Virus record (IMG/VR): IMGVR_UViG_2778261353_000005 | From: a virus | Taxonomy: Duplodnaviria > Heunggongvirae > Uroviricota > Caudoviricetes | DNA: 36,948 bases | Direction: 5' to 3' (one strand) | Shown: positions 1 to 36,948 of the stretch, piece after piece | Numbering within the stretch: the first letter of the stretch is position 1 | Layout: the number at the start of each line of letters is the position of its first letter | Notes under the pieces: model-generated | Told to the model about the DNA's origin: nothing | The model's input: the letters and a program-made list of their open reading frames with translations, nothing else | Database searches by the model: none | Position numbers and translations under genes: made by a program

Positions 1-996
1 TTAACGAACCAGCCAGACCAGCATCAGGATAATCGCGACTAACAGTATCCACAGCGCGGGACGCGTTGCCATATTTTGCAACGTGTCCATCATCGGTGGA
101 AAAGGATTAAGCAGCGGTTGCATATCACGCGGATCAATCCCTTTAACCCGCCGTTGATAAAGCTGATTAAGAATATCCTCGGCCTGGGCAGAAGAAAGCG
201 ATGATTGCGCAGAAAGGCCATATTTTTGCTGGATATATGCCGATAACGCCGCCAGTTCACTGGCATCTAAAGGTTGTTTTAGCGCCATCTGTAGTGATTC
301 CAGCGTCGGCGTATTTTGCTGGCTTAGCGTCTGACGCGCCTGTAGCCAGGTCACCAGATGGTTAAACAGTTTCGCTGGAATTAACTCGCCATCTTTCACC
401 CCGGAAAGTTCCAGCATCGATTGCCAGATCTGTTTGCTGGGTTCCCCCGTTGCCGCCGCAAGTTTGGTCACCAGCTGTTTTAGCGCATTGTGCTCCGCCG
501 GTAATAAAGGACGGTCGGTCGCCTCGCGCTGCTGCGGTTGCGGAATAACCATCTTCCCTTCCTGCAACAGGGTGAGAATGGTTTTTAATTGCTCCGGTGA
601 GAGCTGATTCAGCGGCGTCTGACCAAAGTTATGACGGATATAATCCGTGACCGCCTGACGATTATTCCCCAGACGTAAATACTCCCCTAATTGCGCTAAA
701 AGCTGGCGGGCAGAATGGCTTTTTTGCGCGGCCAGCAGACGTTGCGCCAGATTATGCTCAGCGGCAGGGAAGTGACGCGAAAGCAGCGGTGAATCTCCCG
801 ACAGACCAATATCGTGCCTGATACCCGCCCACAGTTCTGCTCTTTGCTGTTGCGTCAGTGAGGTCACTTTCGTCATTAAGCTTTCCAGCGAAGTACGTTG
901 CTGACTGGATAAAGGCTGATTGCCCGCGCCAGACGGCAGGTTATCTCCCTGACCTGGTGGTTGCCCAGGAGGAGGGCCGGAAATAGGTTGTATCAT
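1..996 (-). CDS. flk: Flagellar regulator Flk (chromosomal, C-terminal membrane anchor)
   Basis: 331-aa ORF; N-terminus MIQPISGPPPGQPPGQ, Q/L-rich body and C-terminal hydrophobic anchor match my recollection of E. coli Flk; not search-confirmed. Confidence 0.7.
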   Translation of the reverse strand: MIQPISGPPPGQPPGQGDNLPSGAGNQPLSSQQRTSLESLMTKVTSLTQQQRAELWAGIRHDIGLSGDSPLLSRHFPAAEHNLAQRLLAAQKSHSARQLLAQLGEYLRLGNNRQAVTDYIRHNFGQTPLNQLSPEQLKTILTLLQEGKMVIPQPQQREATDRPLLPAEHNALKQLVTKLAAATGEPSKQIWQSMLELSGVKDGELIPAKLFNHLVTWLQARQTLSQQNTPTLESLQMALKQPLDASELAALSAYIQQKYGLSAQSSLSSAQAEDILNQLYQRRVKGIDPRDMQPLLNPFPPMMDTLQNMATRPALWILLVAIILMLVWLVR

Positions 997-1263: not shown

Positions 1264-2157
1264 CTATTTCCAGTTACAAGCAGCTTGAAGTGGTTTTAGC
1301 GCGTTTGACAGGCCGTTTAAATTGAAAGTTGCACTTACAGGGCTCTCATTATAAGGAGTTATTTTTGTATACATTTTGTTTGAGTTGGCTAGTTTTCGGA
1401 TGAAATCAATGTCATTACCTTTATAAAAAACAGCCTTTGTATCTGTAGATACTAGCCAGTTTCGCTCAACTGCTTTCTGTTTATCAAGACGATAAAGCAT
1501 GCTGGTTTGTTCAAGGCCTAAATATACATCCCAACTAAGAAATACTTCGGTTTTCTTTTCTCGGCAAGCTATAAACAGAGTGGGAGTAACCGCTTCTCCA
1601 AATGGAGTTCTGATATAATCATCACTTTCTAACGATAAAATTACATTTTTCGAATCATCAATTGGCGATGTAGTAATGGATGTGTGCCATTTTCCTACAT
1701 CTGTGGCTTTCTCTAATTTTGATTCAGCTTGAACAGCTTTATCCTGTGGGAATAGTTTATCGTAGCAGTTTAGTCTGGCTTCTTTATCATTTTCTGCTCG
1801 GCATTTAGATATCTCAGAAAGATTTGGTTGCTGAGCCTCTGTTGTTACTGGCTTTTCCGTTTTAGATTTTGAGTTTACAGATGGAGTAAATGTTGGAGAA
1901 AAAAAACGATCATAACAAGATAAACGTCTGTCATCATCTTTCTCATCAGGGCATTGATCTCTGCTTTCGAATTTTTCAGCAACTTTCGTTCGAGTCGGTT
2001 GTATTGACTTATCGTAACAAGAAAGTCTGTCTTTATTATTTTCTATTGCTCGGCACTGGAGTACTGCATTGAAGTTATTATGTTCAGTTGCTGCGTGAAC
2101 AGGCAGTACACTAATTGATATAAATGATGCACCTATAGAAAAAATTATATTTTTCAT
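1264..2157 (-). CDS. Secreted protein with three Cys-containing repeats (C-x7-9-RLxCYD) and a ~150-aa C-terminal domain; function unknown
   Basis: 297-aa ORF; signal-peptide-like N-terminus ending VHA; repeats around RLSCYDK, RLSCYDR, RLNCYDK; AT-rich codon usage. Confidence 0.7.
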   Translation of the reverse strand: MKNIIFSIGASFISISVLPVHAATEHNNFNAVLQCRAIENNKDRLSCYDKSIQPTRTKVAEKFESRDQCPDEKDDDRRLSCYDRFFSPTFTPSVNSKSKTEKPVTTEAQQPNLSEISKCRAENDKEARLNCYDKLFPQDKAVQAESKLEKATDVGKWHTSITTSPIDDSKNVILSLESDDYIRTPFGEAVTPTLFIACREKKTEVFLSWDVYLGLEQTSMLYRLDKQKAVERNWLVSTDTKAVFYKGNDIDFIRKLANSNKMYTKITPYNESPVSATFNLNGLSNALKPLQAACNWK

Positions 2158-2161
2158 TTTG

Positions 2162-2494
2162 TTATCCTTTTGGTTTAGTAAGAAATACTAAAATTCCGAT
2201 AATGATATCGCCAATAACCCATAAACTTCCAATGGTAATTAAACCTAAGCCTGTACCAATAACTGCACCGGCTTTTTCGGCATCGGATGTAGCATTATTT
2301 ATTATTTCACTAGTGCCTCCCAGTCCAACTAAAAGCGTATAGATCATAAAAATATTAAATAATATAAATATCCACTTAATGAGCTTTCCAAAAAATGAAC
2401 GCTTAAGTTTTTTTATTTGTTTACCGCAAGCAGGGCAATACAATGCTGAATCGCTCACCTCTTTCTGGCATTCAGGACATTTGATTAATGCCAT
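2162..2494 (-). CDS. Zinc-ribbon (CPxC...CPxCG) membrane protein, likely co-transcribed with 1264..2157
   Basis: 110-aa ORF; N-terminal CPECQ-x11-CPACG then hydrophobic helices; stop 4 nt before downstream gene start. Confidence 0.65.
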   Translation of the reverse strand: MALIKCPECQKEVSDSALYCPACGKQIKKLKRSFFGKLIKWIFILFNIFMIYTLLVGLGGTSEIINNATSDAEKAGAVIGTGLGLITIGSLWVIGDIIIGILVFLTKPKG

Positions 2495-2896: not shown

Positions 2897-3086
2897 AGCA
2901 CTTGCTCCTTTTCCGGAGAGGCGCTAACCTTTCACTTGCTTAGGGTAGACGGTTAGGGCCTCGGTTAAACAAAAGTGTTTTCCGGGGCCTTTCCACATCT
3001 GGCCTTCGGGTATTCCCTCCGACCATCAGCCGAAAGGCACCCGCGCGTAATCTATCGCTTTTTTGTTACTCCGGCAATTCTGCTTG

Positions 3087-3347
3087 TTAATTCTGAGGTA
3101 AAGGCAAACTCATCTGATTGTTTCCCCTGTGTGAAGCTGGTAGCTCATGCCACGGGATACCTTCTGAAGAGTGAACGCCGGAGGCGTGTTTCGATGTGAA
3201 TTTATGGAAAGCTTCCAGTGTTGAGAAGCATACGCCGCATTCCAGATTGTTACACTGGTAATACTTTTGCCGCACGGTGTTTGAATCATTTTCCGGACGA
3301 CTTGTGCGGATACGGGCAGATGCGCCACAAAGCGGACAACGGAACAT
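3087..3347 (-). CDS. ogr: Ogr/Delta-family zinc-finger late transcription activator
   Basis: 86 aa; MFRCPLCG...YYQCNNLECG gives C-x2-C-x22-C-x4-C as in P2 Ogr. Confidence 0.85.
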   Translation of the reverse strand: MFRCPLCGASARIRTSRPENDSNTVRQKYYQCNNLECGVCFSTLEAFHKFTSKHASGVHSSEGIPWHELPASHRGNNQMSLPLPQN

Positions 3348-3538
3348 AGCGACCTCCCTTAACGTGGTGTTGCCGCTATTCTAGATTGTACGATCCCTAA
3401 TTCCAACTAACAGCTCGCTCTGTGCGAAGAGTGAAAATTGAACTTTCAATAGTTGTTGAACTTCCATACATCCAATGTGAAAATTCATACGTTCATAATA
3501 GTTAAAATTTAAAATATTGTATATCAGGTGAATAAAGC

Positions 3539-4561
3539 ATGGGAAGAGATATAACGCTGTACCCTAAAAAAGCAACTAGAAACGAACTTAAAAATTACCT
3601 TGAAAATTTAGGTTTTAAAAGGTGTAAACATTTGTGGGAATGGCCCCAAGGAACGTTGAATTACTCTTGGTTTGATGATACGGACTTCAAATCTACAGAT
3701 GGAGTTTCGGCTGATATATATCCTGTTTCAAATGACGAATTACACATATCTGGTAATAAATGGGCATTGCATGTGCGTAATTTATATAGCGCTAGTTGGC
3801 ATGATGTAAAAATGCTTAATGATGTTCTAAAAGGCGCAAGGAGTCTTTTTGGTGGAACACTTATAGGTGATTATGGGAAAAATAGGTACGCTCCTCTATG
3901 GAAGGATTCTAGTAGTCCGATCAGTCGTGGCATTTCTTCAATATTTAATCATGTCCATCATGAGATTTCCGCTGTTAAACATGCCTTACCTGAACCTTCT
4001 ATTAAATTAAACCTACCGGAAGATGGCGGTTTATCCGAATACTTTGATTACATGCAATGTATGGATCCCAGTAGAGTTATATATAATGGATTAGTACCTT
4101 TTGCGGTTGCTATGTTTGAATACTTTTTCTCTAGAGCTTTTCAAATACTTATAAAGTACGATCCTTTCGCAATAGCAAAAAGAACATCGTATAAGCAAAA
4201 AGTTGATTTTGATATTCTGCTTGAGATAGAGAAAGGAAATATTTCAATAGAAAGTGTTATTGCAAGAAATTACACTTTTCAAAACTTAACCCACCTAAAC
4301 AAAGCATATAAAGAGTGGCTGGATATAGATGTGAGAGCGATTCTTTATAAGAAAAAAAGAATTGGAAAATCAGTTGATTTTCTTGAGAATCGAATTTCTG
4401 AAATCATACAATATAGACATGGGATAGTTCATCACTTTGAGTTGGATAGGACCTTAAATCGGGATGGATATATTCATATATTAGATGCGATAGAAAAAAG
4501 CATAATTGAATTTATCCATTACATAGAAGGCAAATACAAATTTAAATTAAATGCGTATTAA
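3539..4561 (+). CDS. AT-rich accessory (moron) gene, function unknown; possible HEPN-like C-terminal Rx4H motif
   Basis: 340-aa ORF of clearly lower GC than flanks, opposite strand to D and ogr; C-terminal ...ENRISEIIQYRHGIVHH... Confidence 0.7.
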   Translation: MGRDITLYPKKATRNELKNYLENLGFKRCKHLWEWPQGTLNYSWFDDTDFKSTDGVSADIYPVSNDELHISGNKWALHVRNLYSASWHDVKMLNDVLKGARSLFGGTLIGDYGKNRYAPLWKDSSSPISRGISSIFNHVHHEISAVKHALPEPSIKLNLPEDGGLSEYFDYMQCMDPSRVIYNGLVPFAVAMFEYFFSRAFQILIKYDPFAIAKRTSYKQKVDFDILLEIEKGNISIESVIARNYTFQNLTHLNKAYKEWLDIDVRAILYKKKRIGKSVDFLENRISEIIQYRHGIVHHFELDRTLNRDGYIHILDAIEKSIIEFIHYIEGKYKFKLNAY

Positions 4562-4589
4562 GCAATCAACCTTACATAGGGATGACAAA

Positions 4590-4627
4590 GTCCGCTTCTG
4601 ACACGGAGCGGACCGTCGTTTATGTTT
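4590..4627 (+). terminator. Putative intrinsic terminator after the AT-rich gene
   Basis: gtccgc...gcggac stem followed by T-rich cgtcgtttatgttt. Confidence 0.4.
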
Positions 4628-4681
4628 AATTCTATACTGTAAACTTGCCAGTTTAAGTTTGAGCTAATATGTCTAAGTTGC

Positions 4682-5791
4682 TCACTCTGTTTCTGCTATC
4701 CATTCCGGGATTTTTGCCTCAAGCTCAAGCTGTGTGGTAAAGCCGCTGTTATCAATGGTGTGCTCGGCTTTCGCAATAATCCAGTCCTGATTATCAATCT
4801 CGCTTTTAAATCCTGTTACCGTGCCATGCATTTCGGGGTAGAGTTCTGCACGTCCACGCACCAGCGTGATGGAAAATAATGCGGCTCCGCGTTGTAGCTG
4901 CTGCCACTTTGCCGCCGCTGCGCGTCTTGCTGCCTGCTCGTTCTGATAAGTCTTGCGTAACACAAACACATTGCCTTCCGCGCCTTCCATATAATCACCT
5001 TCACGGCTGCTGCTTTTCTCCTTTTTGGGTTTTGGCGGTTTGCGGCGTTTCACGCTGACTTTTTTCTTTTTCCCGTAATTAAGATCAAGCCAGTAAGCGC
5101 GTACCCCCGTATACGCCTCGCGGTCAGCAATGCGGAACTGATGGCGATCGCCGCTGCTGCGTGTGATGGCGAACGATGGCAACGGCTGGCCCTGTGCGTT
5201 CACGCCACCGCCGGGCATGATGAATAACAGATTACCGCTTTTTACCGTGGTGATTGCGCCCAGCATTTCCGCCATGCGCGTAAGGAAGGACATGTCGCTT
5301 TCTTCAGTCTGGTCGGCGTGGTCGATTTCGATATCCATCAGCATTTCGCTGATTTGCGGTTTCAGGCTGTACCGATGAGCGATGGCGGATACCACACGTT
5401 CAACGGTCACATCATGCCAGGACGCCTCACGTTTAACATTAAATTCATCCCGAAAATCTGCGCTTCTGGCTGAAACAGTCAGCCTGTCCGGCGGTCCTTC
5501 GTGAGCGATTTCATCAACAATGTAAGTGCCTTTTTCTGTCAGCGGTTCCCCTTTCCAGCCAATGAGAACCGTCAGGCGCGCGCCCCGTGGCGGTAGCTGC
5601 AACTGACCATCCGCATCATCCAGCGTGATGGTGAGCTGGTCCGCTTCAAATCCCCGGTTGTCGGTCAGTGACAGGCTCATCAGGCGCTCTGCCACGCCTG
5701 ACAGCGTTTTACCCTCCGCGAGAATATCAAAATCCGGCATTTTCACGGGGTCTGTGCCCTGACTGAGCAATTGCATGGTGGTATCGGTCAT
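4682..5791 (-). CDS. D: Late control / tail protein D
   Basis: Start placed at MTDTTMQLL; the ORF-track N-terminal 44 aa are R/S/P/T-rich and look non-coding; family assignment by recollection of P2 gpD. Confidence 0.8.
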   Translation of the reverse strand: MTDTTMQLLSQGTDPVKMPDFDILAEGKTLSGVAERLMSLSLTDNRGFEADQLTITLDDADGQLQLPPRGARLTVLIGWKGEPLTEKGTYIVDEIAHEGPPDRLTVSARSADFRDEFNVKREASWHDVTVERVVSAIAHRYSLKPQISEMLMDIEIDHADQTEESDMSFLTRMAEMLGAITTVKSGNLLFIMPGGGVNAQGQPLPSFAITRSSGDRHQFRIADREAYTGVRAYWLDLNYGKKKKVSVKRRKPPKPKKEKSSSREGDYMEGAEGNVFVLRKTYQNEQAARRAAAAKWQQLQRGAALFSITLVRGRAELYPEMHGTVTGFKSEIDNQDWIIAKAEHTIDNSGFTTQLELEAKIPEWIAETE

Positions 5792-5948
5792 CTGTTCCCT
5801 CCCTGTGCGGCATGGTCGCATGTGCGTGCGGAGGGGGTTACTGCTTTTTGTTGTCGCCGTGGCGGGAGAACGGCGCAGGGGTGAGATTACGCGCGTGGTG
5901 GGTGATGATTGTTGCCGAATCATTTAACGGATACAAGGGGCTGAAGCT

Positions 5949-7133
5949 ATGAGTGAAACTCGTTTTCATGGTGCCCGTGTTACGGAAAATACCGACCTGG
6001 TAACAGCGATTAACGATGTTGATTCCAGCGTTATCGGTATCGTGGCAACGGCGGATGATGCGGACGCGAAGCTGTTCCCGCTGAACAAGCCCACACTGCT
6101 GACCCGCGTCAATGACGTGCTGGGAAAATGCGGGACAACGGGGACGCTTTATCGTGCGCTTAAGGCCATCGCAGACCAGGTGAGCACAAAGGTGATCGTC
6201 GTTCGCGTGGCTGAACACAAAGAAGAAGACGGAAAGACGCAGGATCAACTGGTTATCGGTGGTTCTGAGGATGACGGCAGCTATACGGGGATGTATGCGC
6301 TGCTTGTTGCAGAGCAGGATGAAAGCATCGGATACCGTCCGCGTATTCTGGCCGCGCCGGAGCTGGACACGGAGGCTGTAACAAAATCCCTGTGCGTGAT
6401 TGCAGGTAAACTGCGCGCGTTTGTGTATGCCTCATGTCACGGCTGTAACACGATGGCTGAGGCGATTACCTACCGCCAGAAATTCAACGAACGTGAGGTG
6501 ATGCTCTTATGGCCGGACTTCATCGCCTACAACCCGAAAAGTGGCAAAAACGAAACGTTCCCCGCGTCTGCCTATGCGTGCGGCCTTCGTGCGTACATTG
6601 ACCATGAGCAGGGATGGCACAAATCACTGTCCAACGTTCCGGTTAAAAATGTGCTGGGGATGTCGAGGCATGTGTTCTGGTCGTTGCAGGCCGAAGACAG
6701 CGATGCCAACAGCCTCAACAACAAAGAAATCACGACCATTATTCGTCGCAACGGGTTCCGCTTCTGGGGCAACCGCACACCGGAAACGAACGCCTACATC
6801 TTTGAGGTGTATACCCGAACCGCACAGGTGCTGGCTGATTCAATTGCGGAAGCGCAGTTTGAAACCATCGACAGTCCACTGACGCCTGCGAACGTGAAGG
6901 ATGTTATCAGTGCCATCAGGGCAAAACTGGATTCACTGGTGACTGCCGGGAAACTGATTGGCGCGTCGTGCTGGTATGACGTGGTGGATAACAGCACCAC
7001 GGATTTACGTCAGGGGCGTGTGCGTATTCGCTACAAATATACGCCAGTTCCTCCGCTGGAAGATATGGAGCTTTACCAGACGTTTACTGATGAATACTTT
7101 GATCCCGCATTTGCGGTGCTGGGAGGTGTCTGA
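5949..7133 (+). CDS. FI: Contractile tail sheath protein
   Basis: 394 aa; conserved blocks FPLNKP, LRAF, WPDF, DHEQGWHK, IRRNGFRFWGNRT, YTPVPPLE as in P2 FI. Confidence 0.9.
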   Translation: MSETRFHGARVTENTDLVTAINDVDSSVIGIVATADDADAKLFPLNKPTLLTRVNDVLGKCGTTGTLYRALKAIADQVSTKVIVVRVAEHKEEDGKTQDQLVIGGSEDDGSYTGMYALLVAEQDESIGYRPRILAAPELDTEAVTKSLCVIAGKLRAFVYASCHGCNTMAEAITYRQKFNEREVMLLWPDFIAYNPKSGKNETFPASAYACGLRAYIDHEQGWHKSLSNVPVKNVLGMSRHVFWSLQAEDSDANSLNNKEITTIIRRNGFRFWGNRTPETNAYIFEVYTRTAQVLADSIAEAQFETIDSPLTPANVKDVISAIRAKLDSLVTAGKLIGASCWYDVVDNSTTDLRQGRVRIRYKYTPVPPLEDMELYQTFTDEYFDPAFAVLGGV

Positions 7134-27022: not shown

Positions 27023-27292
27023 TCAATTGTTGCTGTGTATTAATCGCCAACCACGAACATATGCTTCATAGGCATCTCTGTGCCTTACAGTTCCAGCCTG
27101 GCTAAACGGAATGTTAGCTAAAACTAAATCATTCTGAGCCATAGCGCGTCCTTCAAGCGCATCTTTTATGCCTAGCTCAAAAGCACAGGCAGCGCATTTG
27201 TGCCGACCTTCTTGTCCTTGATATTCAGGGAGAGACAGAAATGTTGGATTATAACGATGAGGGTTCTTGCAAATACCTGTTTTAGCCCGCAC
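27023..27292 (-). CDS. Hypothetical 89-aa cargo protein with own promoter (GTG start)
   Basis: ORF-track ORF; strong sigma70-like promoter about 200 bp upstream; no family recognised. Confidence 0.55.
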   Translation of the reverse strand: MRAKTGICKNPHRYNPTFLSLPEYQGQEGRHKCAACAFELGIKDALEGRAMAQNDLVLANIPFSQAGTVRHRDAYEAYVRGWRLIHSNN

Positions 27293-27528: not shown

Positions 27529-27656
27529 GATAATTGATCGTTTTAATCGATAGATAATAGACAATCTATTTGTTTAACAGATCGATTATTGAAGTAAGTG
27601 TGCCAAGTGGAATGATACTGTCTCTATAAACGTGAGCATTTTTCGCGCAGATGCTT

Positions 27657-27968
27657 TTACTCAGGAAATAACGCCCGGATATTCCCAGCCATCTGGCTGG
27701 TTATCTTAGCCACTGGTGCAGACTGTGCTTCAAACTTTTTTGAGCTGATTTGTGTCACAGGTAACATCTCATCATCAGCCCATGCGGCCAGTCGGTAAGC
27801 CTCTGCCGGATTCGTCTTCAGAAGTGCCAGCCCGGCCAGAAAAGCCACGCGTTGGCCGCTTTTGCGGGCTTCTGGTGTAAGGCTGTCCAGCCAGGCGCAT
27901 GCTTCTCCTTCGTTCTTGACGGCAGCTGGCTTCAGATAGAAACTTATCCGTCTGGTTGGTGTTGTCAT
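27657..27968 (-). CDS. parR: ParR-like centromere-binding protein
   Basis: Start 5 nt after parM stop with AAGGAG SD; RRISFYLKP...LDSLTPE...AFLAGLAL resembles plasmid R1 ParR. Confidence 0.7.
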   Translation of the reverse strand: MTTPTRRISFYLKPAAVKNEGEACAWLDSLTPEARKSGQRVAFLAGLALLKTNPAEAYRLAAWADDEMLPVTQISSKKFEAQSAPVAKITSQMAGNIRALFPE

Positions 27969-27972
27969 TGGT

Positions 27973-28932
27973 TTACTCCTTGTCCATTGCGTACAGCCCA
28001 TTAACCAGAGCAAACTGTGGCACCCCGTCCGCGATGAAAGTCGCATTAACTCCGCAGGCTTCGCGGATAGCGGGTGCCACAATCTCCGCCCCGCCACCGA
28101 CAACCATCACCCGCCCGTAACCCGAAAAACCCGCCAGCGCGCGGATCACGCGTTGTTTCAGTGTTTCTTCCTTTTCACGAATAACCGCCATCAGGCTGTC
28201 GTAATGCGCGTCATTGTGGATGTGCTGGCGCAGCCAGGCTTCATCATGGCGATGTTCGATAATGGTATTGGCGATGTGGTGACTGGTACGCATACCGTTA
28301 GTGGCCATCACCGACAGTACGGCATCGGCCATCAGGGAAACGCCTACGTGTGGATCGCAAAACACCTGGCTGATACCTGCCAGTTGTCCCTGAACCTTTG
28401 CCACATCCAGCGTGGTTCCGCCTAAATCCACAATCAGCAGGGATTCAAACGGACTCATGTCAGCCAGTGCTTTAAAGCCAGCCGGAATGGATTCAGGCAT
28501 AACCCGTACGTTACGGATAGTGAATGCTTCGCCGTTCTGGTACTCCACCGGGCGCATGACGTTCGCTTTTTTGCGGTTGATGTTGGCCATGTCCGGCTGT
28601 GCGTTTGTGTCGAAATATTCGCTCAGTGGCAGAGTGACAACCACATCCACTTCCTGTGGTGTGATGCCTGATTTGACCAGCGCGTGATGAATGGCAATGA
28701 CATTCACATCGCTGTACTGGTATTGCGTGTCGGTCGTCTGGACAAAGCGATCGCTGACCGGATCAAAACCATAGCGCACGCCATCAAGCATGTAGTTCGC
28801 GGGCTGCGTGCCACCGAACGGCGCAGACCATTCCGACTTGAAGCTGTTCGGGCTGATGGCGTTGCGGCGTTCGCCGTTCTCAGTCCATGCCAGCTTGATG
28901 TTGGTGGAGCCGTCATCGATACAAATTTTCAT
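27973..28932 (-). CDS. parM: ParM/StbA-like actin-family partition ATPase
   Basis: 319 aa; IDDGSTNIKLAW, ISPNSFK, YSDVNVIAIHHAL, NRKKAN, VMPESIPAG, LLIVDLGGTTLDV, GVSL, GFSGY, VMVVGGGAE, LVNGLY blocks as in R1 ParM. Confidence 0.85.
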   Translation of the reverse strand: MKICIDDGSTNIKLAWTENGERRNAISPNSFKSEWSAPFGGTQPANYMLDGVRYGFDPVSDRFVQTTDTQYQYSDVNVIAIHHALVKSGITPQEVDVVVTLPLSEYFDTNAQPDMANINRKKANVMRPVEYQNGEAFTIRNVRVMPESIPAGFKALADMSPFESLLIVDLGGTTLDVAKVQGQLAGISQVFCDPHVGVSLMADAVLSVMATNGMRTSHHIANTIIEHRHDEAWLRQHIHNDAHYDSLMAVIREKEETLKQRVIRALAGFSGYGRVMVVGGGAEIVAPAIREACGVNATFIADGVPQFALVNGLYAMDKE

Positions 28933-28963
28933 GTCGCTTTTCCTTATGTTGATTAATTAATCG

Positions 28964-29072
28964 CTTACGGGATTCTGAAATCCCGTTTTTGCCTGTTTTA
29001 TGCGCGCTTCATATATCGCGGCGCGTTTTTTGCTCATTTACGGGATTTGTGAATCCCGTTTCTGTCTGTTTT
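28964..29072. repeat. Two 36-bp direct repeats, each with a 20-bp palindrome (acgggatt..aatcccgt), upstream of parM; parC-like centromere/operator candidate
   Basis: Copies at about 28964..28999 and 29037..29072; second copy overlaps the last codons of gene A. Confidence 0.45.
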
Positions 29073-31831
29073 TTGTTTCCACTGGTCAGGCCACCCCGCA
29101 GCAGGTCTGCTTTGCGGCGGGCGTGTTCAGTGGTTTCACTGATTCTCTGTGCGTGCTCTGCGTCGCGGATGGCGCGCAGCATGTCAGAAAGCACGGTAAC
29201 GGGTGTTTTCATGGTGTTCTGGTCCTGCTGAAGTGTGGATGCCAGGCGTGCGGCGGCTTCGGGGTCTGATGCCCCCAGCTGTTCCAGATAGCTGGCGACC
29301 GGGTTATGGCGGATCTCCGTGCTGCTTACGCCGTGGTTACGGCTCAGGCGCTGCCAGAGCTGCGTGATCCGGCTGTCCGGTCGGGTATCCGGTTTGCGTA
29401 CAATTTCAAATCCCTGCGGTGCAATGATGCTGCCGTCGACGTACAGACTGCCGCCCCGTAACAGGTGCTGCATCTGCTGTTCACCGATAGGCAGGCCGAG
29501 AGATTCAGCAGACTCCCGCCATTCTTTAGCGAGTAACTCGTGGTTATCAGGCAAAGGCCGTGGCTGTTTGCGGCTCTGTGTCCAGTTCTGCATTTCATCA
29601 CTGCTGTTTTTTGCCTGTTTGTCACGCAGCGAACGCATCAGCGCCCGGCGTTCGTGCCGTTTCAGTGAGCGCATCCATTCATTCACGTCAACGCCGTCAG
29701 GAAGCTGCGGCCACGGTGCTGGCCGTTCTTCCAGCTGTTCTGTCCCGTTGTTGTCCGTTTCCTGTACACGGGGACAGTTATTGCCACGAGTCCAAGGGGC
29801 GGCAGGGCCGCCCTGAAGGTCAAAACCATTTTCGCGGGCGCTGTCTTCCGCTTCCGGTTTACGTCTTACCAGCTTCCAGTTATCCGGATGTGTGCACACA
29901 CGGGAAGACTCCCCGATGAGCGGTGACCAGATCCCGTAAATCTGTACGCTCTGTTCGCCGTAATCGTTCAGCTCATCTGCGAGGTCGTAGGCGGTGCGAA
30001 TCAGGTAGTCTTTGCGTGGAACAAGTACGCCGCCCTGTTTTTCAATGTAGGAGGCAAAACACCCGGCATCAGCGGCAGCGAGCACTGCATCCATTGCGTC
30101 ATCCTTCAGTCGTTGCGGGCCTTCCGGGTTGCGTGCCATCTGGCTGGCAAGGCGGCGCAGTTCACGCCACACCTGACGGGAGGGGATGCCAAAGAACTGG
30201 AACTGGCGGACCCGGTGAAGGCGCGCCCAGCCGATGGCGCGCTCCACGCTCTCGGCCATTGATTTTCCGGTTTCGTGGTCAACGCGTGGCTTGCCCGTTT
30301 TCGGGTCGATACCATCCACGGCGCGGCTGTCCAGGTTCTTTCCGATGTAGGTGGCGATGTAGCTGGTTGGCGTGCCTTTTGAGCCGTCGACGTACTCCGC
30401 CTTAAAACGCGGAGTTATGTCATCGCCCAGCTCGTGGCGGTCTTCCTGAATGGCAATATCGCAGACGTGGGACACGATGGTTTCAATCTCGTCCGGATGT
30501 GCAAAGACCATCATATGCCAGTGCACAGTGCCGTCATGGTGAGGCTCCACCGTGCGGATGCCATACCAGCGAAGACCGTCGCGGTTCAGTTTTTTGCGGA
30601 CCGCCGCAAAAAACGTGTTAACCAGGTAATCGCTGGAGTCGCGCATGGTGGCCCCGTTCCATTTGGGATTCGGATGACCGTTCTCTGTTGTGGCGTGGTA
30701 TTTTGACGGGCAGGTGACAGTCAGAAACACCGCTCTGTCGCCACGGGCTTCGGCCAGAAGTTCCAGTCCCTTCATGGTGGCCATCATTTCTGCCTTACGG
30801 TGAACCGGGTTACTTACTCCCGCGTAATACACCGTCTCGAGATCAATCGTGAACCCGTCTTCATTTTCCAGCATGAAACTTTTCAGGAAATCGCGTGTTT
30901 TCTCGCGCTGTGCGCGAAACTCGCTTAACGCGTCCTGGCTCAGATAGGGTGATGTTTTTCTGGAAACCAGACAGGCGGCGCGGAGTTGTTCTTCTCTCCA
31001 CTCGCAACGTAACAGCCACAGTTTGCGTTTCCACCATTCCGCACAGGTCAGGCGAAGGATTGCGCCCGGCAGCAGCTCCGTGTCCGGTTCGTTCCTCCGG
31101 TCTTTGTCTGTTGTCAGTGCGTCATAATGTGGAGGCATGGCGTGCAGGTGTAACGCCATGCGGGCCAGCATCTGATACGCCTTCAGCGTTACATCCATGG
31201 TCAGTTCGCCATCAGTAGCGCCAAAGCCATCGCAGAGTTTTTCGAAGGTGCTGCTGAACATCGCCGCCGTCATGGTGGCCAGCGTCTGTATCTGGTGTTT
31301 GTTGAGCTGCGGCAGGTAAAGCAAATCGTTCAGGCGTTCGCGTCCGGCAAGGGAGCGATAACCCGGTGTCAGCCAGCGGTGATCGGTGCGGTCCAGACGT
31401 TCGAATATTTTGCGCAGGGTTCCGCGCGCGTAGCGTTCCGCCTGCCAGCTCTTTTTGCCTTTCTGACGATCGGCTTCCTGCTTCTTGCGCAGGAAGGAGA
31501 GGTGGCGAATAAGCGGATCGCGCAGATAGGACGGCAGCAGGCGCAGCGAGGCCATGGCTTCATCCACCGCGCCGCGTGCCTGTTTTCTGGCGTCTCCTGC
31601 CAGTGTGATGGTTTTGTCCTGTTTTTCCTGTGCGTCCAGGCTTTTATTAATCAGGTTGCCCAGCGGCGTGGCGGAGAACGCCGCATCAGCCATTTCCTGG
31701 AGGCGCTCGTTCTCTACCCGGTAGGCATCCAGCCAGGAGGAAAGCGCGGATTCAGGAGCGGAGATCCCCGTTCCTTCACGCCCCACTGCGTGGCGCGGTT
31801 GTTGCCAGTCCCTGATGTACTCTGCCGTCAT
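29009..31831 (-). CDS. A: Replication initiation endonuclease A (rolling-circle HUH nickase); true start may be internal
   Basis: 940-aa ORF; FLTVTCPSKYH and RTVEPHHDGTVHWHMMVF as in P2 gpA; longer than P2 A, mainly at the C-terminus. Confidence 0.85.
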   Translation of the reverse strand: MTAEYIRDWQQPRHAVGREGTGISAPESALSSWLDAYRVENERLQEMADAAFSATPLGNLINKSLDAQEKQDKTITLAGDARKQARGAVDEAMASLRLLPSYLRDPLIRHLSFLRKKQEADRQKGKKSWQAERYARGTLRKIFERLDRTDHRWLTPGYRSLAGRERLNDLLYLPQLNKHQIQTLATMTAAMFSSTFEKLCDGFGATDGELTMDVTLKAYQMLARMALHLHAMPPHYDALTTDKDRRNEPDTELLPGAILRLTCAEWWKRKLWLLRCEWREEQLRAACLVSRKTSPYLSQDALSEFRAQREKTRDFLKSFMLENEDGFTIDLETVYYAGVSNPVHRKAEMMATMKGLELLAEARGDRAVFLTVTCPSKYHATTENGHPNPKWNGATMRDSSDYLVNTFFAAVRKKLNRDGLRWYGIRTVEPHHDGTVHWHMMVFAHPDEIETIVSHVCDIAIQEDRHELGDDITPRFKAEYVDGSKGTPTSYIATYIGKNLDSRAVDGIDPKTGKPRVDHETGKSMAESVERAIGWARLHRVRQFQFFGIPSRQVWRELRRLASQMARNPEGPQRLKDDAMDAVLAAADAGCFASYIEKQGGVLVPRKDYLIRTAYDLADELNDYGEQSVQIYGIWSPLIGESSRVCTHPDNWKLVRRKPEAEDSARENGFDLQGGPAAPWTRGNNCPRVQETDNNGTEQLEERPAPWPQLPDGVDVNEWMRSLKRHERRALMRSLRDKQAKNSSDEMQNWTQSRKQPRPLPDNHELLAKEWRESAESLGLPIGEQQMQHLLRGGSLYVDGSIIAPQGFEIVRKPDTRPDSRITQLWQRLSRNHGVSSTEIRHNPVASYLEQLGASDPEAAARLASTLQQDQNTMKTPVTVLSDMLRAIRDAEHAQRISETTEHARRKADLLRGGLTSGNKKQTETGFTNPVNEQKTRRDI

Positions 31832-31837
31832 AGTGAT

Positions 31838-32203
31838 TTACTTCGTCATGCCATTCAGGGTGTCGCGGCAGACTGTAGCCAGCCGCTGAATTTCCAGCAC
31901 GGTGTCTTCTGTGTCGGCATGGCGATGTGTGATGCTGATGCTGTCGGCAATCACATCGACGATTGCAGAGGATGGGCGCTGGTAAATGCCAATAACGGAC
32001 GGGGTGCCACCTTCAATGCGGTAAAGCCTGTAATTTCCCTCGTGGCTGTCAATCATGTAGCGACCATCAATAACAATCTTTCCGTCAGCGAGCTGCGGTA
32101 CAGGCAGGGATTTCAGGTACATGTCATAACGATCACGCACGCGAGCGGCAAGATCACGCTCTGTGTTGAGCAGGTATTCAAGAAAGTCGTTGGCGAGAAT
32201 CAT
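31838..32203 (-). CDS. Hypothetical early-operon protein (121 aa) upstream of A
   Basis: Protein-like composition, tight spacing to A. Confidence 0.55.
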   Translation of the reverse strand: MILANDFLEYLLNTERDLAARVRDRYDMYLKSLPVPQLADGKIVIDGRYMIDSHEGNYRLYRIEGGTPSVIGIYQRPSSAIVDVIADSISITHRHADTEDTVLEIQRLATVCRDTLNGMTK

Positions 32204-32275
32204 TGCGGCAATCCTCTTGTTACAGATGTGCGAAGGCCTCCCGCCGCAAGGTGCAGGAAAGGCCCGGAACAGGAA

Positions 32276-32506
32276 TTAATGGAGTTTGTTTTGCTGCTGG
32301 ATGAGCTGTTGAAGCTCGTGCAGATCATCCGCCAGATAGCTGAAAACAGAGGCGGAATAAATGTTTGATAGTGCGTGGCTGCGCTCATGCAACATATTGA
32401 TGTGCATGATTTGCGCGACGCGTGATGCGCGGGAAAGTCTGCGGTTGATTTCAGTCTGGATGTGACGACGCTCCGCGATAGCGCGGTGTGGTTTGCGGTT
32501 TGCCAT
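32276..32506 (-). CDS. Hypothetical small basic early protein (76 aa)
   Basis: ORF-track ORF with plausible helical composition. Confidence 0.45.
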   Translation of the reverse strand: MANRKPHRAIAERRHIQTEINRRLSRASRVAQIMHINMLHERSHALSNIYSASVFSYLADDLHELQQLIQQQNKLH

Positions 32507-32685
32507 GGTGTGGCCCCTTGTGTAGTAAGTTGTGAAAACTCACCATCCAGAGCTGCGAAACTGTGGGTGGCGAGACGTACGAGGTTCGCAGTACCGGCTA
32601 CACAAGAACCCGGCCCGACCGAAGTCGGCCCCGTACGCCCCGCCATAATTCTGACGCGAAAAAAACGTGGCAATACAGTACGCAC

Positions 32686-32706
32686 AAAAAAACCGCTGGC
32701 GCGGTT
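32686..32706 (-). terminator. Possible intrinsic terminator/attenuator inside the early-operon noncoding island
   Basis: Minus strand aaccgc-gcca-gcggtt hairpin followed by TTTTTTT. Confidence 0.35.
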
Positions 32707-32828
32707 GTGCGCTTGTGTAGTCAGCAGGCTGCGAAACCCGGCACCCGTTTTGTGAGGTGCAGCGGAAATGTAACCTGACTGATTGCGGCATGGCAAGCGG
32801 TTTTTTTGTGTGTGCATGTTCTGGTTTC

Positions 32829-35847: not shown

Positions 35848-35943
35848 GGCCAGAAAACTGGTTAGACCTGCTTTTTGTCTGGTCTGATTATTGCTGGAAA
35901 GAGGCTGGAGAAATTGTAGAGCGGTTCATTGGAGGGCTTCGTA

Positions 35944-36948
35944 ATGTCGATTAAGAAGCTCGAAGATGGTCGTTATTTGCTGGACATCAGGCCGAACGGA
36001 CGCAAGGGAAAGCGCGTGCGTAAGGTATTTGACAAAAAATCGGTAGCGGTGGCCACTGAACGCTACATCATGGCGAACGCTGAAAAGCGGGAATATATAC
36101 AGGGCTACCGTGATCGTCGAACGCTAAATGATTTGCTTGAGTTGTGGTGGATGTATCACGGCCAGCACAGGCGTAAGGCGGAAGAAGACCGAAAACAACT
36201 GCGCAACATAATCAATGAGCTTGGCGCTGATATGCAGGCTGTGGATCTTGATAAGCTGAAAATTATCGCGTGGCGTTCTCAAAAGATAGCTGATGGATTG
36301 AAACCGTCATCTGCTAACAGGTACATGAATCGGTTATCCGGAATGTTTACCGTGCTGAAAAAAATAGGTCTTTGGGATGCAGAACATCCAGTAAGGGGAA
36401 TTTCTATTCTTTATGTATCTCCACGAGAAATGGCGTTCCTGTCACAGAAGGAAGTGGCGCTATTGCTCGATACACTGGAGGGCGACTACTGGCGTGTTGC
36501 GCTTTTGTGTTTAAGCACAGGGGCGCGCTGGAGTGAAGCTTGTAAGCTTCGTGGTGAACAGATAGTTCATAACCGTGTAACGTTTCTTGAAACCAAAAAT
36601 GGCCGGAAGAGAACAGTGCCAATTTCGCAGGCAGTTTGTGAGGCGATCAAAACCAGAGAAACAGGCGGCTTGTTTGAGGTGAAGTACCGGGAATTCTGCC
36701 TGGCGCTGAAAAGAGTTAAGCCCGATTTACCAAAAGGCCAGGCTGCACATGTGCTGCGGCATACGTTCGCCAGCCATTTTGTGATGAACGGAGGAAACAT
36801 TATTGCGCTTCAGAAGATTCTTGGTCACGCAACCATTCAGCAAACAATGGCATATGCGCATTTTGCACCGGATTACCTGCAGGATGCGGTGGCCCTTAAT
36901 CCGCTGAAAGGTGGCGTAAGTGTCCACGCAGTGTCCACGGGGGATTAA
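35944..36948 (+). CDS. int: Tyrosine integrase (P2 Int family), complete
   Basis: Start MSIKKLEDGRY; LCLSTGARWSEA, NRVTF, RTVPIS, HVLRHTFASHF, GGNII-LQ-ILGH, MAYAHFAP-YLQDA match P2 Int. Confidence 0.9.
   Translation: MSIKKLEDGRYLLDIRPNGRKGKRVRKVFDKKSVAVATERYIMANAEKREYIQGYRDRRTLNDLLELWWMYHGQHRRKAEEDRKQLRNIINELGADMQAVDLDKLKIIAWRSQKIADGLKPSSANRYMNRLSGMFTVLKKIGLWDAEHPVRGISILYVSPREMAFLSQKEVALLLDTLEGDYWRVALLCLSTGARWSEACKLRGEQIVHNRVTFLETKNGRKRTVPISQAVCEAIKTRETGGLFEVKYREFCLALKRVKPDLPKGQAAHVLRHTFASHFVMNGGNIIALQKILGHATIQQTMAYAHFAPDYLQDAVALNPLKGGVSVHAVSTGD

Follow-up and report, generated by a model that had tools for sequence, protein, structure and literature searches.

A ParMRC-like partition cassette with a two-dyad upstream site in the backbone of P88-like prophages

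The 36,948-nucleotide (nt) stretch of viral DNA analyzed here in full (IMG/VR record IMGVR_UViG_2778261353_000005, hereafter the window) holds a P88-like prophage of the P2 family (genus Xuanwuvirus, family Peduoviridae), in which the genes for an actin-like ATPase, ParM, and a predicted adaptor, ParR, lie directly behind the replication gene A and are preceded by two dyad repeats. We lean toward the view that these elements form a working type II (ParMRC, actin-type) segregation cassette that would act on extrachromosomal, replicating phage DNA and is probably co-expressed with gene A. Both proteins are homologs of plasmid partition proteins, the genes are intact, parM is under strong purifying selection, and the cis-sites as well as the linkage to gene A are conserved. 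We infer that ParR binds the dyads, that parMR is cotranscribed with gene A, and at which stage of the phage life cycle the cassette would act.

Genes and cis-acting site of the cassette

On the minus strand, gene A, which encodes the replication endonuclease gpA, is followed after a gap of 76 nt by parM and then by parR (Table 1). ParM matches the Pfam families StbA_N (E 1.8e-82) and ParM C-terminal domain (E 1e-68), is placed in PHROG 691 ("partition protein"), and aligns over its full length with ParM of plasmid R1 (PDB 1MWK; E 1.3e-92, about 50% identity). It keeps the motifs DDGSTNIK, PESIPAG (R1 E148), DLGGTTLD (R1 D170), and GGGAE, which have phosphate-binding, catalytic, and adenosine-binding roles in R1 ParM. 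ParR matches Plasmid_stab_B (PF10784, the family of R1 StbB/ParR) with an E value of 1e-23 and 83 bits, against a cut-off of 25, and is placed in PHROG 2515. NCBIfam gave only sub-threshold matches for ParM and none for ParR. The Pfam matches and the R1 alignment confirm the complete ParM/ParR module that a preliminary description, made from the sequence alone, had proposed. Its location directly downstream of gene A in an integrated, integrase-bearing prophage likewise holds, given the 76-nt gap, the intact integrase, and the flanking host gene flk. A 148-amino-acid open reading frame (ORF) with a TTG start was considered as parR and rejected in favor of the true ORF, which is the one listed in Table 1.

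Within ParR, an N-terminal, predicted DNA-binding part that includes the strand TRRISFYLKP is joined by a hypervariable linker to a conserved C-terminal NIxxLFPE tail. The terminal motif, (R/K)NIxxLFP(E/D), is common to the ParRs of IncF plasmids and phage D6. In plasmid R1, the ParR C terminus docks on ParM, and the shared tail motif thus fits this known role. A sequence search of solved structures, ParR chains included, gave no relative of this protein, and a single-sequence AlphaFold model (mean predicted local distance difference test score, 44) was too poor for a fold search; Pfam membership and the conserved TRRISFYLKP strand are what suggest a ribbon-helix-helix fold for the N-terminal domain.

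The parR ATG lies 4 nt past the parM stop codon, an arrangement found in 88 of the 91 collected loci that we used for the analyses of conservation and selection, and an AAGGAG at the end of parM stands ahead of it. Translational coupling of parR to parM, as the preliminary description had it, is plausible on these grounds, but the two genes do not overlap here, whereas they do so by 4 nt in relatives from Serratia and Enterobacter.

Table 1. Features of the cassette and of gene A, in order along the minus strand
Feature	Coordinates	Strand	Basis
Gene A, replication endonuclease, 940 aa	29009..31831	-	Pfam Phage_GPA, E 2e-129
Distal parC-like repeat, dyad at 29040-29059	29038..29075	-	Repeat and dyad search; in the last ~21 codons of gene A
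Inter-dyad spacer; includes the stop codon of gene A (29009-29011), an imperfect GC-rich palindrome, and, at 29024-29040, the third copy of an A-rich 17-nt element	29003..29037	-	Direct-repeat family D2, 3 copies
Proximal parC-like repeat, dyad ACGGGATT-N4-AATCCCGT at 28967-28986	28965..29002	-	Repeat and dyad search; intergenic, gene A and parM being 76 nt apart
AT-rich box ATTAATTAATCAAC, conserved, located after the proximal dyad and ahead of the parM Shine-Dalgarno sequence	28944..28962	-	ATTAAT invariant in an Escherichia/Plesiomonas/Hafnia alignment
parM, actin-like segregation ATPase, 319 aa (coordinates include the stop codon)	27973..28932	-	Pfam, R1 ParM alignment, PHROG 691
parR, predicted centromere-binding adaptor, 103 aa	27657..27968	-	Pfam PF10784, PHROG 2515

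Two palindrome-containing direct repeats of 36 bp had also been described upstream of parM. Both are present, and the coordinates given in that description are correct, but each repeat is 38 nt long and the distal one lies inside gene A. They are 82% identical to each other, start 73 bp apart, and each contain a perfect dyad with 8-bp arms (ACGGGATT-N4-AATCCCGT), a pattern that occurs nowhere else in the window when up to three mismatches are allowed; none of 100 shuffled sequences gave two dyad matches. Exactly two dyads of the form GGG-N10-CC(C/T) are found in 87 of 89 related loci, with the 73-bp spacing in 86. Two GGG-N10-CCC dyads are also present in a Plesiomonas prophage, 72 to 73 bp apart and with the distal one inside the end of the upstream ORF, and in a Hafnia prophage; around the dyads, the sequence of both prophages has diverged. 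Relatives in Serratia and Enterobacter have other upstream repeats and a slightly different ParR N terminus, as would be expected if adaptor and site co-evolve.

One locus bears on the question of which gene the repeats belong to. In IMGVR_UViG_3300029762_000213 (positions 3044-6000; L069), the dyads, parM, and parR stand behind another replication protein of 773 aa that is 31% identical to the gpA of the window. An extra 159-aa ORF also precedes parM there, and the block that starts just upstream of the distal dyad and includes parMR shows no change. Because the dyads stay with parMR although gpA has been replaced, the repeats belong to parMR and not to gene A, and the locus shows that the cassette has been exchanged as a module between P2-like backbones. 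The idea that the repeats are part of gene A or of its replication origin was rejected for the same reason and because the P2 origin nick site lies 427 nt inside gene A and not at its end.

Alternatively, the dyads might function as RNA or terminator hairpins that insulate A-parM from antisense late transcription or give structure to the A-parM transcript. Read on the plus strand, each has a T-rich run behind it and receives a terminator-like score, and the sense RNA of the E. coli loci folds unusually well relative to shuffled sequences (z = -4.9 to -5.5). In the Plesiomonas and Hafnia prophages, however, the outer GGG/CCC positions are retained together with the 72- to 73-bp spacing, whereas the inner stem is not, and folding is similar to that of shuffles (z = -1.4 and +0.3). 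Moreover, dyad variants in E. coli, such as ACGGGACT and GAGGGATT, disrupt base-pairing without compensation, and Rfam has no match at the position of the repeats. The conservation of outer positions only, the shuffle-like folding elsewhere, and the uncompensated variants together favor a protein-binding dyad, and we consider a hairpin function highly improbable.

From the gene A stop codon to the parM start, a consensus scan gave no sigma-70 promoter match and a scan of the sense (minus) strand no terminator-like site. The ATTAAT box, the sole conserved element here apart from the dyads, is below the threshold of the promoter scan; to judge from its sequence, it may serve as a weak -10 region. 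The lack of a recognizable sigma-70 promoter or sense terminator between A and parM points to transcription of parMR mainly by read-through from the early replication operon (gene A), so that synthesis of ParM and ParR would coincide with the extrachromosomal, replicating state of the phage DNA.

Backbone position, selection, and origin

In the preliminary description, parMR was taken for variable cargo comparable to tin and old of phage P2. The distribution of the genes contradicts this. At an identity of at least 90%, parMR occurs in 1303 of 5426 complete E. coli genomes (about 24%), and the type of gene A found here in some 1320 to 1440, the association between the two being almost one-to-one. 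Among the 91 loci, ParM is 97.8 to 100% identical and gpA 82 to 100%, apart from the exchanged gpA of L069, and the identity of the portal protein falls to about 30% in ten loci. Matches to other phages end exactly at the parR stop codon. Beyond this point, the interval between parR and the portal gene varies from 0.99 to 4.17 kb, with 38 different lengths in 60 loci, and measures 1122 nt in the window. Hence, parMR is a near-constant backbone module of the P88-like lineage, and the variable slot starts after parR. In P2, orf91 directly follows A in the same orientation, while tin and old are transcribed oppositely, from near cos. The cassette lies between gpA and gpQ and is co-oriented with A, so that it occupies the place of orf91, extending the A transcription unit, rather than the place of tin/old. 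An assignment of parMR to variable hotspot cargo with its own transcription unit was rejected, given its constancy with gene A and the failure to find a promoter or terminator of its own. When P2 defense islands are delimited, parMR should not be counted as hotspot cargo.

The variable slot of this prophage contains an 89-aa ORF (27023-27292, minus strand) that falls in PHROG 3941 (function unknown; E 6e-49). It has a promoter-like TTGACA-16-TAAGAT upstream (27528-27501) and a terminator-like hairpin just downstream (27015-26995), gave no PADLOC or Pfam match, and is left unannotated by PGAP in E. coli K_EC180. Just downstream of parR, positions 27530-27600 are AT-rich, with several GATC sites and with inverted repeats nested in one another (TAATCGAT...ATCGATTA and ATAGAT...ATCTAT). 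This stretch adjoins the promoter-like site of the 89-aa ORF and is part of the variable segment, not of parMR.

Co-option of the cassette for defense, which the preliminary description had entertained, finds no support. Conceivably, ParR/ParM made by a prophage could titrate or mis-segregate the DNA of related incoming phages or of ParMRC plasmids, and thereby act in exclusion or incompatibility. The gpA-gpQ interval in which the cassette lies is a hotspot for anti-phage systems (PMC9122126), and the resemblance of the ParR tail motif to that of IncF plasmid ParRs makes cross-talk conceivable. However, PADLOC has no match for ParM, for ParR, or for the product of the neighboring 89-aa ORF, and the cassette is constant within the lineage, unlike defense cargo. 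It also retains all that characterizes a genuine partition system, a cis-site of its own among them, and no recognizable promoter for expression in a lysogen was found. We therefore regard such a role as quite improbable.

Selection acts strongly on parM. The ratio of nonsynonymous to synonymous polymorphism (pN/pS) is 0.058 over 76 alleles, and 90 of the 91 copies are intact; the C-terminal 299 codons of gpA are under looser constraint, with a pN/pS of 0.26. In parR, the ratio is 0.14 for the N-terminal part, 0.5 to 0.7 for the linker, and 0.04 to 0.17 for the tail. The TRRISFYLKP strand is invariant and the helices are constrained, whereas the hypervariable linker contributes to a total of 49 distinct ParR proteins in the 91 loci. 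These fall into at least two allele families, which share an identical start of ~17 codons and differ beyond it, a recombination breakpoint being located near codon 18; the second family is found in many O157:H7 and ST131 genomes. ParM and the dyads remain nearly unchanged while the ParR linker diversifies (loci L005-L007 and L011-L093). Constraint on the N-terminal part and the tail of ParR, with a free linker, is the selection pattern that would be expected of an adaptor.

These data already contradict the notion of a functionless relic that is decaying after some past recombination with a plasmid. It is true that many host prophages are degraded, as in K_EC180, where the integrase is frameshifted and head genes are deleted, and that the O157:H7 cassette sits in a remnant next to IS1203. 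Nonetheless, the low pN/pS of parM and its intactness in nearly all copies, the retention of parMR in active, plaque-forming phages (P88, phiSM, and others), and the linkage to gpA in five genera at 54 to 63% ParM identity leave this explanation with a negligible probability.

Outside Escherichia, Salmonella, and Citrobacter, the nearest ParMs are 54 to 63% identical, with values of 63% for Plesiomonas and 62% for Hafnia. GTDB species representatives, searched with a single ParM protein, yielded only three near-identical loci, and the divergent relatives were found by protein search and contig look-ups. In every relative whose context was checked, namely, P2-like prophages of Plesiomonas, Hafnia, Serratia, and Enterobacter, the order is gpA-parM-parR-(cargo)-portal, and these elements carry an integrase or lie on a chromosome-sized contig. 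With Escherichia included, the gpA-parM-parR-cargo-portal order is thus conserved across five genera. In a neighbor-joining tree (midpoint-rooted, with no bootstrap support), the phage ParMs cluster apart from those of R1, IncF, D6, and other plasmids. The simplest reading of these sequence relationships would be that a P2-family phage captured the genes once, in the distant past, and that they have been inherited vertically since.

Two further loci deserve mention. One of the three GTDB loci, on a 226-kb contig labelled Vagococcus sp. (NZ_JBQPOM010000071.1), belongs to a P88-like prophage in which ParM is 98% and the portal protein 99% identical; the label almost certainly reflects enterobacterial contamination or assembly mislabelling. 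The other is a Dickeya locus (CM001975.1, 8001-9373) that encodes a ParM with 49% identity and a ParR in a chromosomal region resembling an integrative and conjugative element (ICE), with TraG_N, TraU, and an integrase. It represents another integrated element with a type II partition system.

Integrated lysogeny and proposed function

The region is 95 to 98% identical to phages P88, phiSM, 520873, PhiR44_2, Chuche, and others, and 99% identical to a prophage between flk and pdxB in K_EC180. Host gene flk forms the start of the window (1-996) and an intact tyrosine integrase gene its end (35929-36948), the latter adjoined by an intact cox and by a C-type repressor gene. Phage phiSM, which has the same parMR, lysogenizes E. 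coli K-12 by integration at the 5' end of pdxB, and virions are released spontaneously. The P2 cos sequence was searched for and gave no match, so that the cos site is not placed.

Possibly, the cassette might allow stable persistence as a low-copy plasmid, as in P1, N15, and D6, as an alternative to integration, for instance when no attachment site is free. Such a plasmid lifestyle was suggested by Rousset et al. 2022 (PMC9122126). PLSDB contains a circular record of 34,461 bp, pZ1323PEC0009-2 (NZ_CP148288.1), that consists of a complete P88-like genome with integrase, cox, parMR, and a Com/methyltransferase pair; it may be a separately assembled excised replicative form or a rare episomal carrier. 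In addition, the P1-like plasmid prophage D6 uses an StbA/StbB pair with 48% identity. Against this stands the location of the cassette, which is chromosomal for 1449 of the 1451 copies in the 5426 complete E. coli genomes, the other two being in prophages that are themselves integrated in large plasmids of 129 and 439 kb. Only one of the six PLSDB matches at an identity of at least 95% is phage-sized. The element studied here is integrated next to flk and has an intact integrase, which phage-plasmids of the P1, N15, SSU5, and D6 type typically lack. Lysogens of phiSM likewise carry the phage inserted at pdxB, no module for plasmid-type replication or copy control is evident, and rolling-circle replication by gpA is the lytic mode. 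Stable plasmid lysogeny is therefore unlikely in view of the overwhelmingly chromosomal location. Of the episomal phase that the preliminary description had envisaged, a transient replicative state remains plausible, but a stable form does not agree with these counts.

In the segregation cassette that we favor, dimers of ParR would bind the two GGG-N10-CCC dyads upstream of parM, which would constitute the centromere and probably also an operator. The conserved C-terminal tail of ParR would capture the ends of ATP-ParM filaments, and the growing filaments would push paired phage DNA circles apart. We expect this to happen after infection or induction, on the replicating phage genome and not on the quiescent integrated prophage. 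Action at that stage would agree with what has been found for AlpAC of prophage CGP3 and SrpMRC of the SXT/R391 ICEs. Monomeric circles from rolling-circle replication are the packaging substrate of P2. The role of the cassette might be to disperse or position phage circles for replication and packaging, to ensure that both daughter cells inherit copies, or both.

Several points weigh against this proposal. ParR binding, filament formation, and a phenotype are all predictions from sequence. With only two dyads and a degenerate third A-rich unit, compared with ten iterons in R1 parC, the centromere would have an architecture unlike those that have been characterized. There may be a weak autoregulated promoter that overlaps the proximal dyad and the ATTAAT box, in which case parMR could also be expressed in lysogens. 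Furthermore, the benefit to a phage with a short lytic cycle is not obvious, and the cassette is absent from P2 itself and from about three-quarters of E. coli P2-like phages (PMC9122126).

A broader proposition, which we put forward tentatively and with clearly less confidence than the segregation function as such, is that a branch of the P2 family spanning at least five Enterobacterales genera captured a ParMRC system with a minimal two-dyad centromere once, long ago, and has retained it ever since at the end of its replication operon. The role would then be viral, in that rolling-circle monomers would be dispersed or positioned or both daughter cells would obtain genomes before integration or lysis, and would not lie in plasmid-style inheritance. 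If this is true, actin-driven genome positioning would be routine in a phage group found in about one-quarter of E. coli genomes. A clear phenotype would add a major group of temperate phages from enterobacteria to a single actinobacterial example, AlpAC, and show how an integrating virus uses a cytoskeletal motor, whereas a negative result for plasmid maintenance would correct a speculation in the current literature. Culturable phages with the cassette are available (P88 and phiSM), and the close homology to the best-understood bacterial segregation machine makes reagents, assays, and structural knowledge transferable.

Some observations concern other parts of the prophage and its relatives. 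Upstream of gene A, inside or beside an Ash-family ORF (32200-32817), two stretches of the minus strand match Rfam families above the gathering score, C4 antisense RNA at 32563-32650 (83 bits) and the Hfq-binding small RNA isrK at 32686-32760 (64 bits). This suggests RNA-based immunity or antirepressor control of the P1/P4 type in a P2-family phage. A 340-aa ORF (3539-4561, plus strand), located between ogr and the gpD tail gene according to the K_EC180 annotation, has a weak, sub-threshold match to HEPN_RiboL-PSP (E 1e-4) and is a candidate accessory or defense gene in a second cargo position. At the flk-side end of the prophage (1264-2494, minus strand, and ~2754-2894), there are three genes. 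One encodes a VasI/TagO-like type VI secretion-associated protein (Pfam VasI, E 3e-25), another a zinc-ribbon protein, and the third, to judge from K_EC180, a Hok/Gef toxin; ORF1 of phiSM encodes the same VasI-family protein. The RefSeq record of Escherichia phage 520873 (NC_049344.1) is linear and starts in host yecA, its integrase and gene A ORFs are split, and an IS100 lies within the tail sheath gene. For these reasons, it represents a prophage region that is probably defective and not a virion genome.

Comparison with known partition systems

A close characterized counterpart is ParMRC of plasmid R1 and the IncF plasmids (parA/stb locus). The proteins belong to the same families, with ParM about 50% identical over its full length and ParR in PF10784 with the NIxxLFP(D/E) motif, and the order of cis-site, parM, and parR is the same. 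The parC site of R1 consists of ten 11-bp iterons, whereas the phage cis-site comprises two dyads of 16 to 20 bp, 73 bp apart, and has no clear promoter within it. Further differences are that the phage cassette is carried by an integrating P2-family phage and not by a plasmid, that its distal site is inside the upstream gene, that its ParR has 103 aa compared with ~117 to 143 aa, and that the phage ParMs form their own neighbor-joining branch. The StbA/StbB system of D6 is likewise a phage-borne ParM/ParR pair, and the annotators of D6 noted the similarity to P88 StbA; D6, however, is a true plasmid prophage of 91 kb, while P88-like phages integrate.

With respect to function, the best analogue is AlpAC-alpS of the Corynebacterium glutamicum prophage CGP3, in which an actin-like ATPase and an adaptor are likewise encoded by an integrated prophage. 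Induction of this system occurs early, the repeats bound by the adaptor are located upstream of its own operon, and the excised circular phage DNA depends on AlpAC to replicate efficiently (Donovan et al. 2015, PMC4446434). AlpC is, however, a distant actin-like protein from an unrelated actinobacterial prophage, and the adaptor gene comes first; the P88-like cassette is known from its sequence alone. SrpMRC of the SXT/R391 ICEs is a ParMRC-like system in a normally integrated element as well. It is expressed only on activation, lends stability to a test plasmid as well as to the excised replicating ICE, and has an upstream site, srpC, to which SrpR binds (Carraro et al. 2015, PMC4489591). Its carrier is an ICE and not a phage, and SrpM and SrpR are distant from R1 ParM and ParR, of which the phage proteins are close homologs.

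The cassette itself has been reported before. Rousset et al. 2022 (PMC9122126) described a "putative plasmid partitioning system" in the gpA-gpQ interval of about one-quarter of the P2-like phages of E. coli and listed StbA and Plasmid_stab_B (WP_000686485 and WP_000211282) in their locus table. These proteins are ParM and ParR of an ST131 locus of our collection (L006), so that the system is the same; there, it is one hotspot content among others, with a speculated function. PGAP, PHROGs, and several phage records already name parM and parR, and the phiSM paper lists the gene as a "fitness" factor. Literature searches on P88 with StbA and on Xuanwuvirus returned nothing on the cassette, and no experimental work on the P88-like cassette was found; a paper on ST95 was set aside, as it concerns a plasmid ParM. 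The preliminary description had called a segregation module in an integrated prophage unexpected, a view that the report of Rousset et al. and the precedents of AlpAC and SrpMRC in integrated elements overturn.

In conclusion, this kind of system is well known and its presence in P2-like phages is already published. To this, our study adds the two-dyad cis-site, the conservation across genera, the selection pattern, the status of parMR as part of the phage backbone, and the case against stable plasmid lysogeny.

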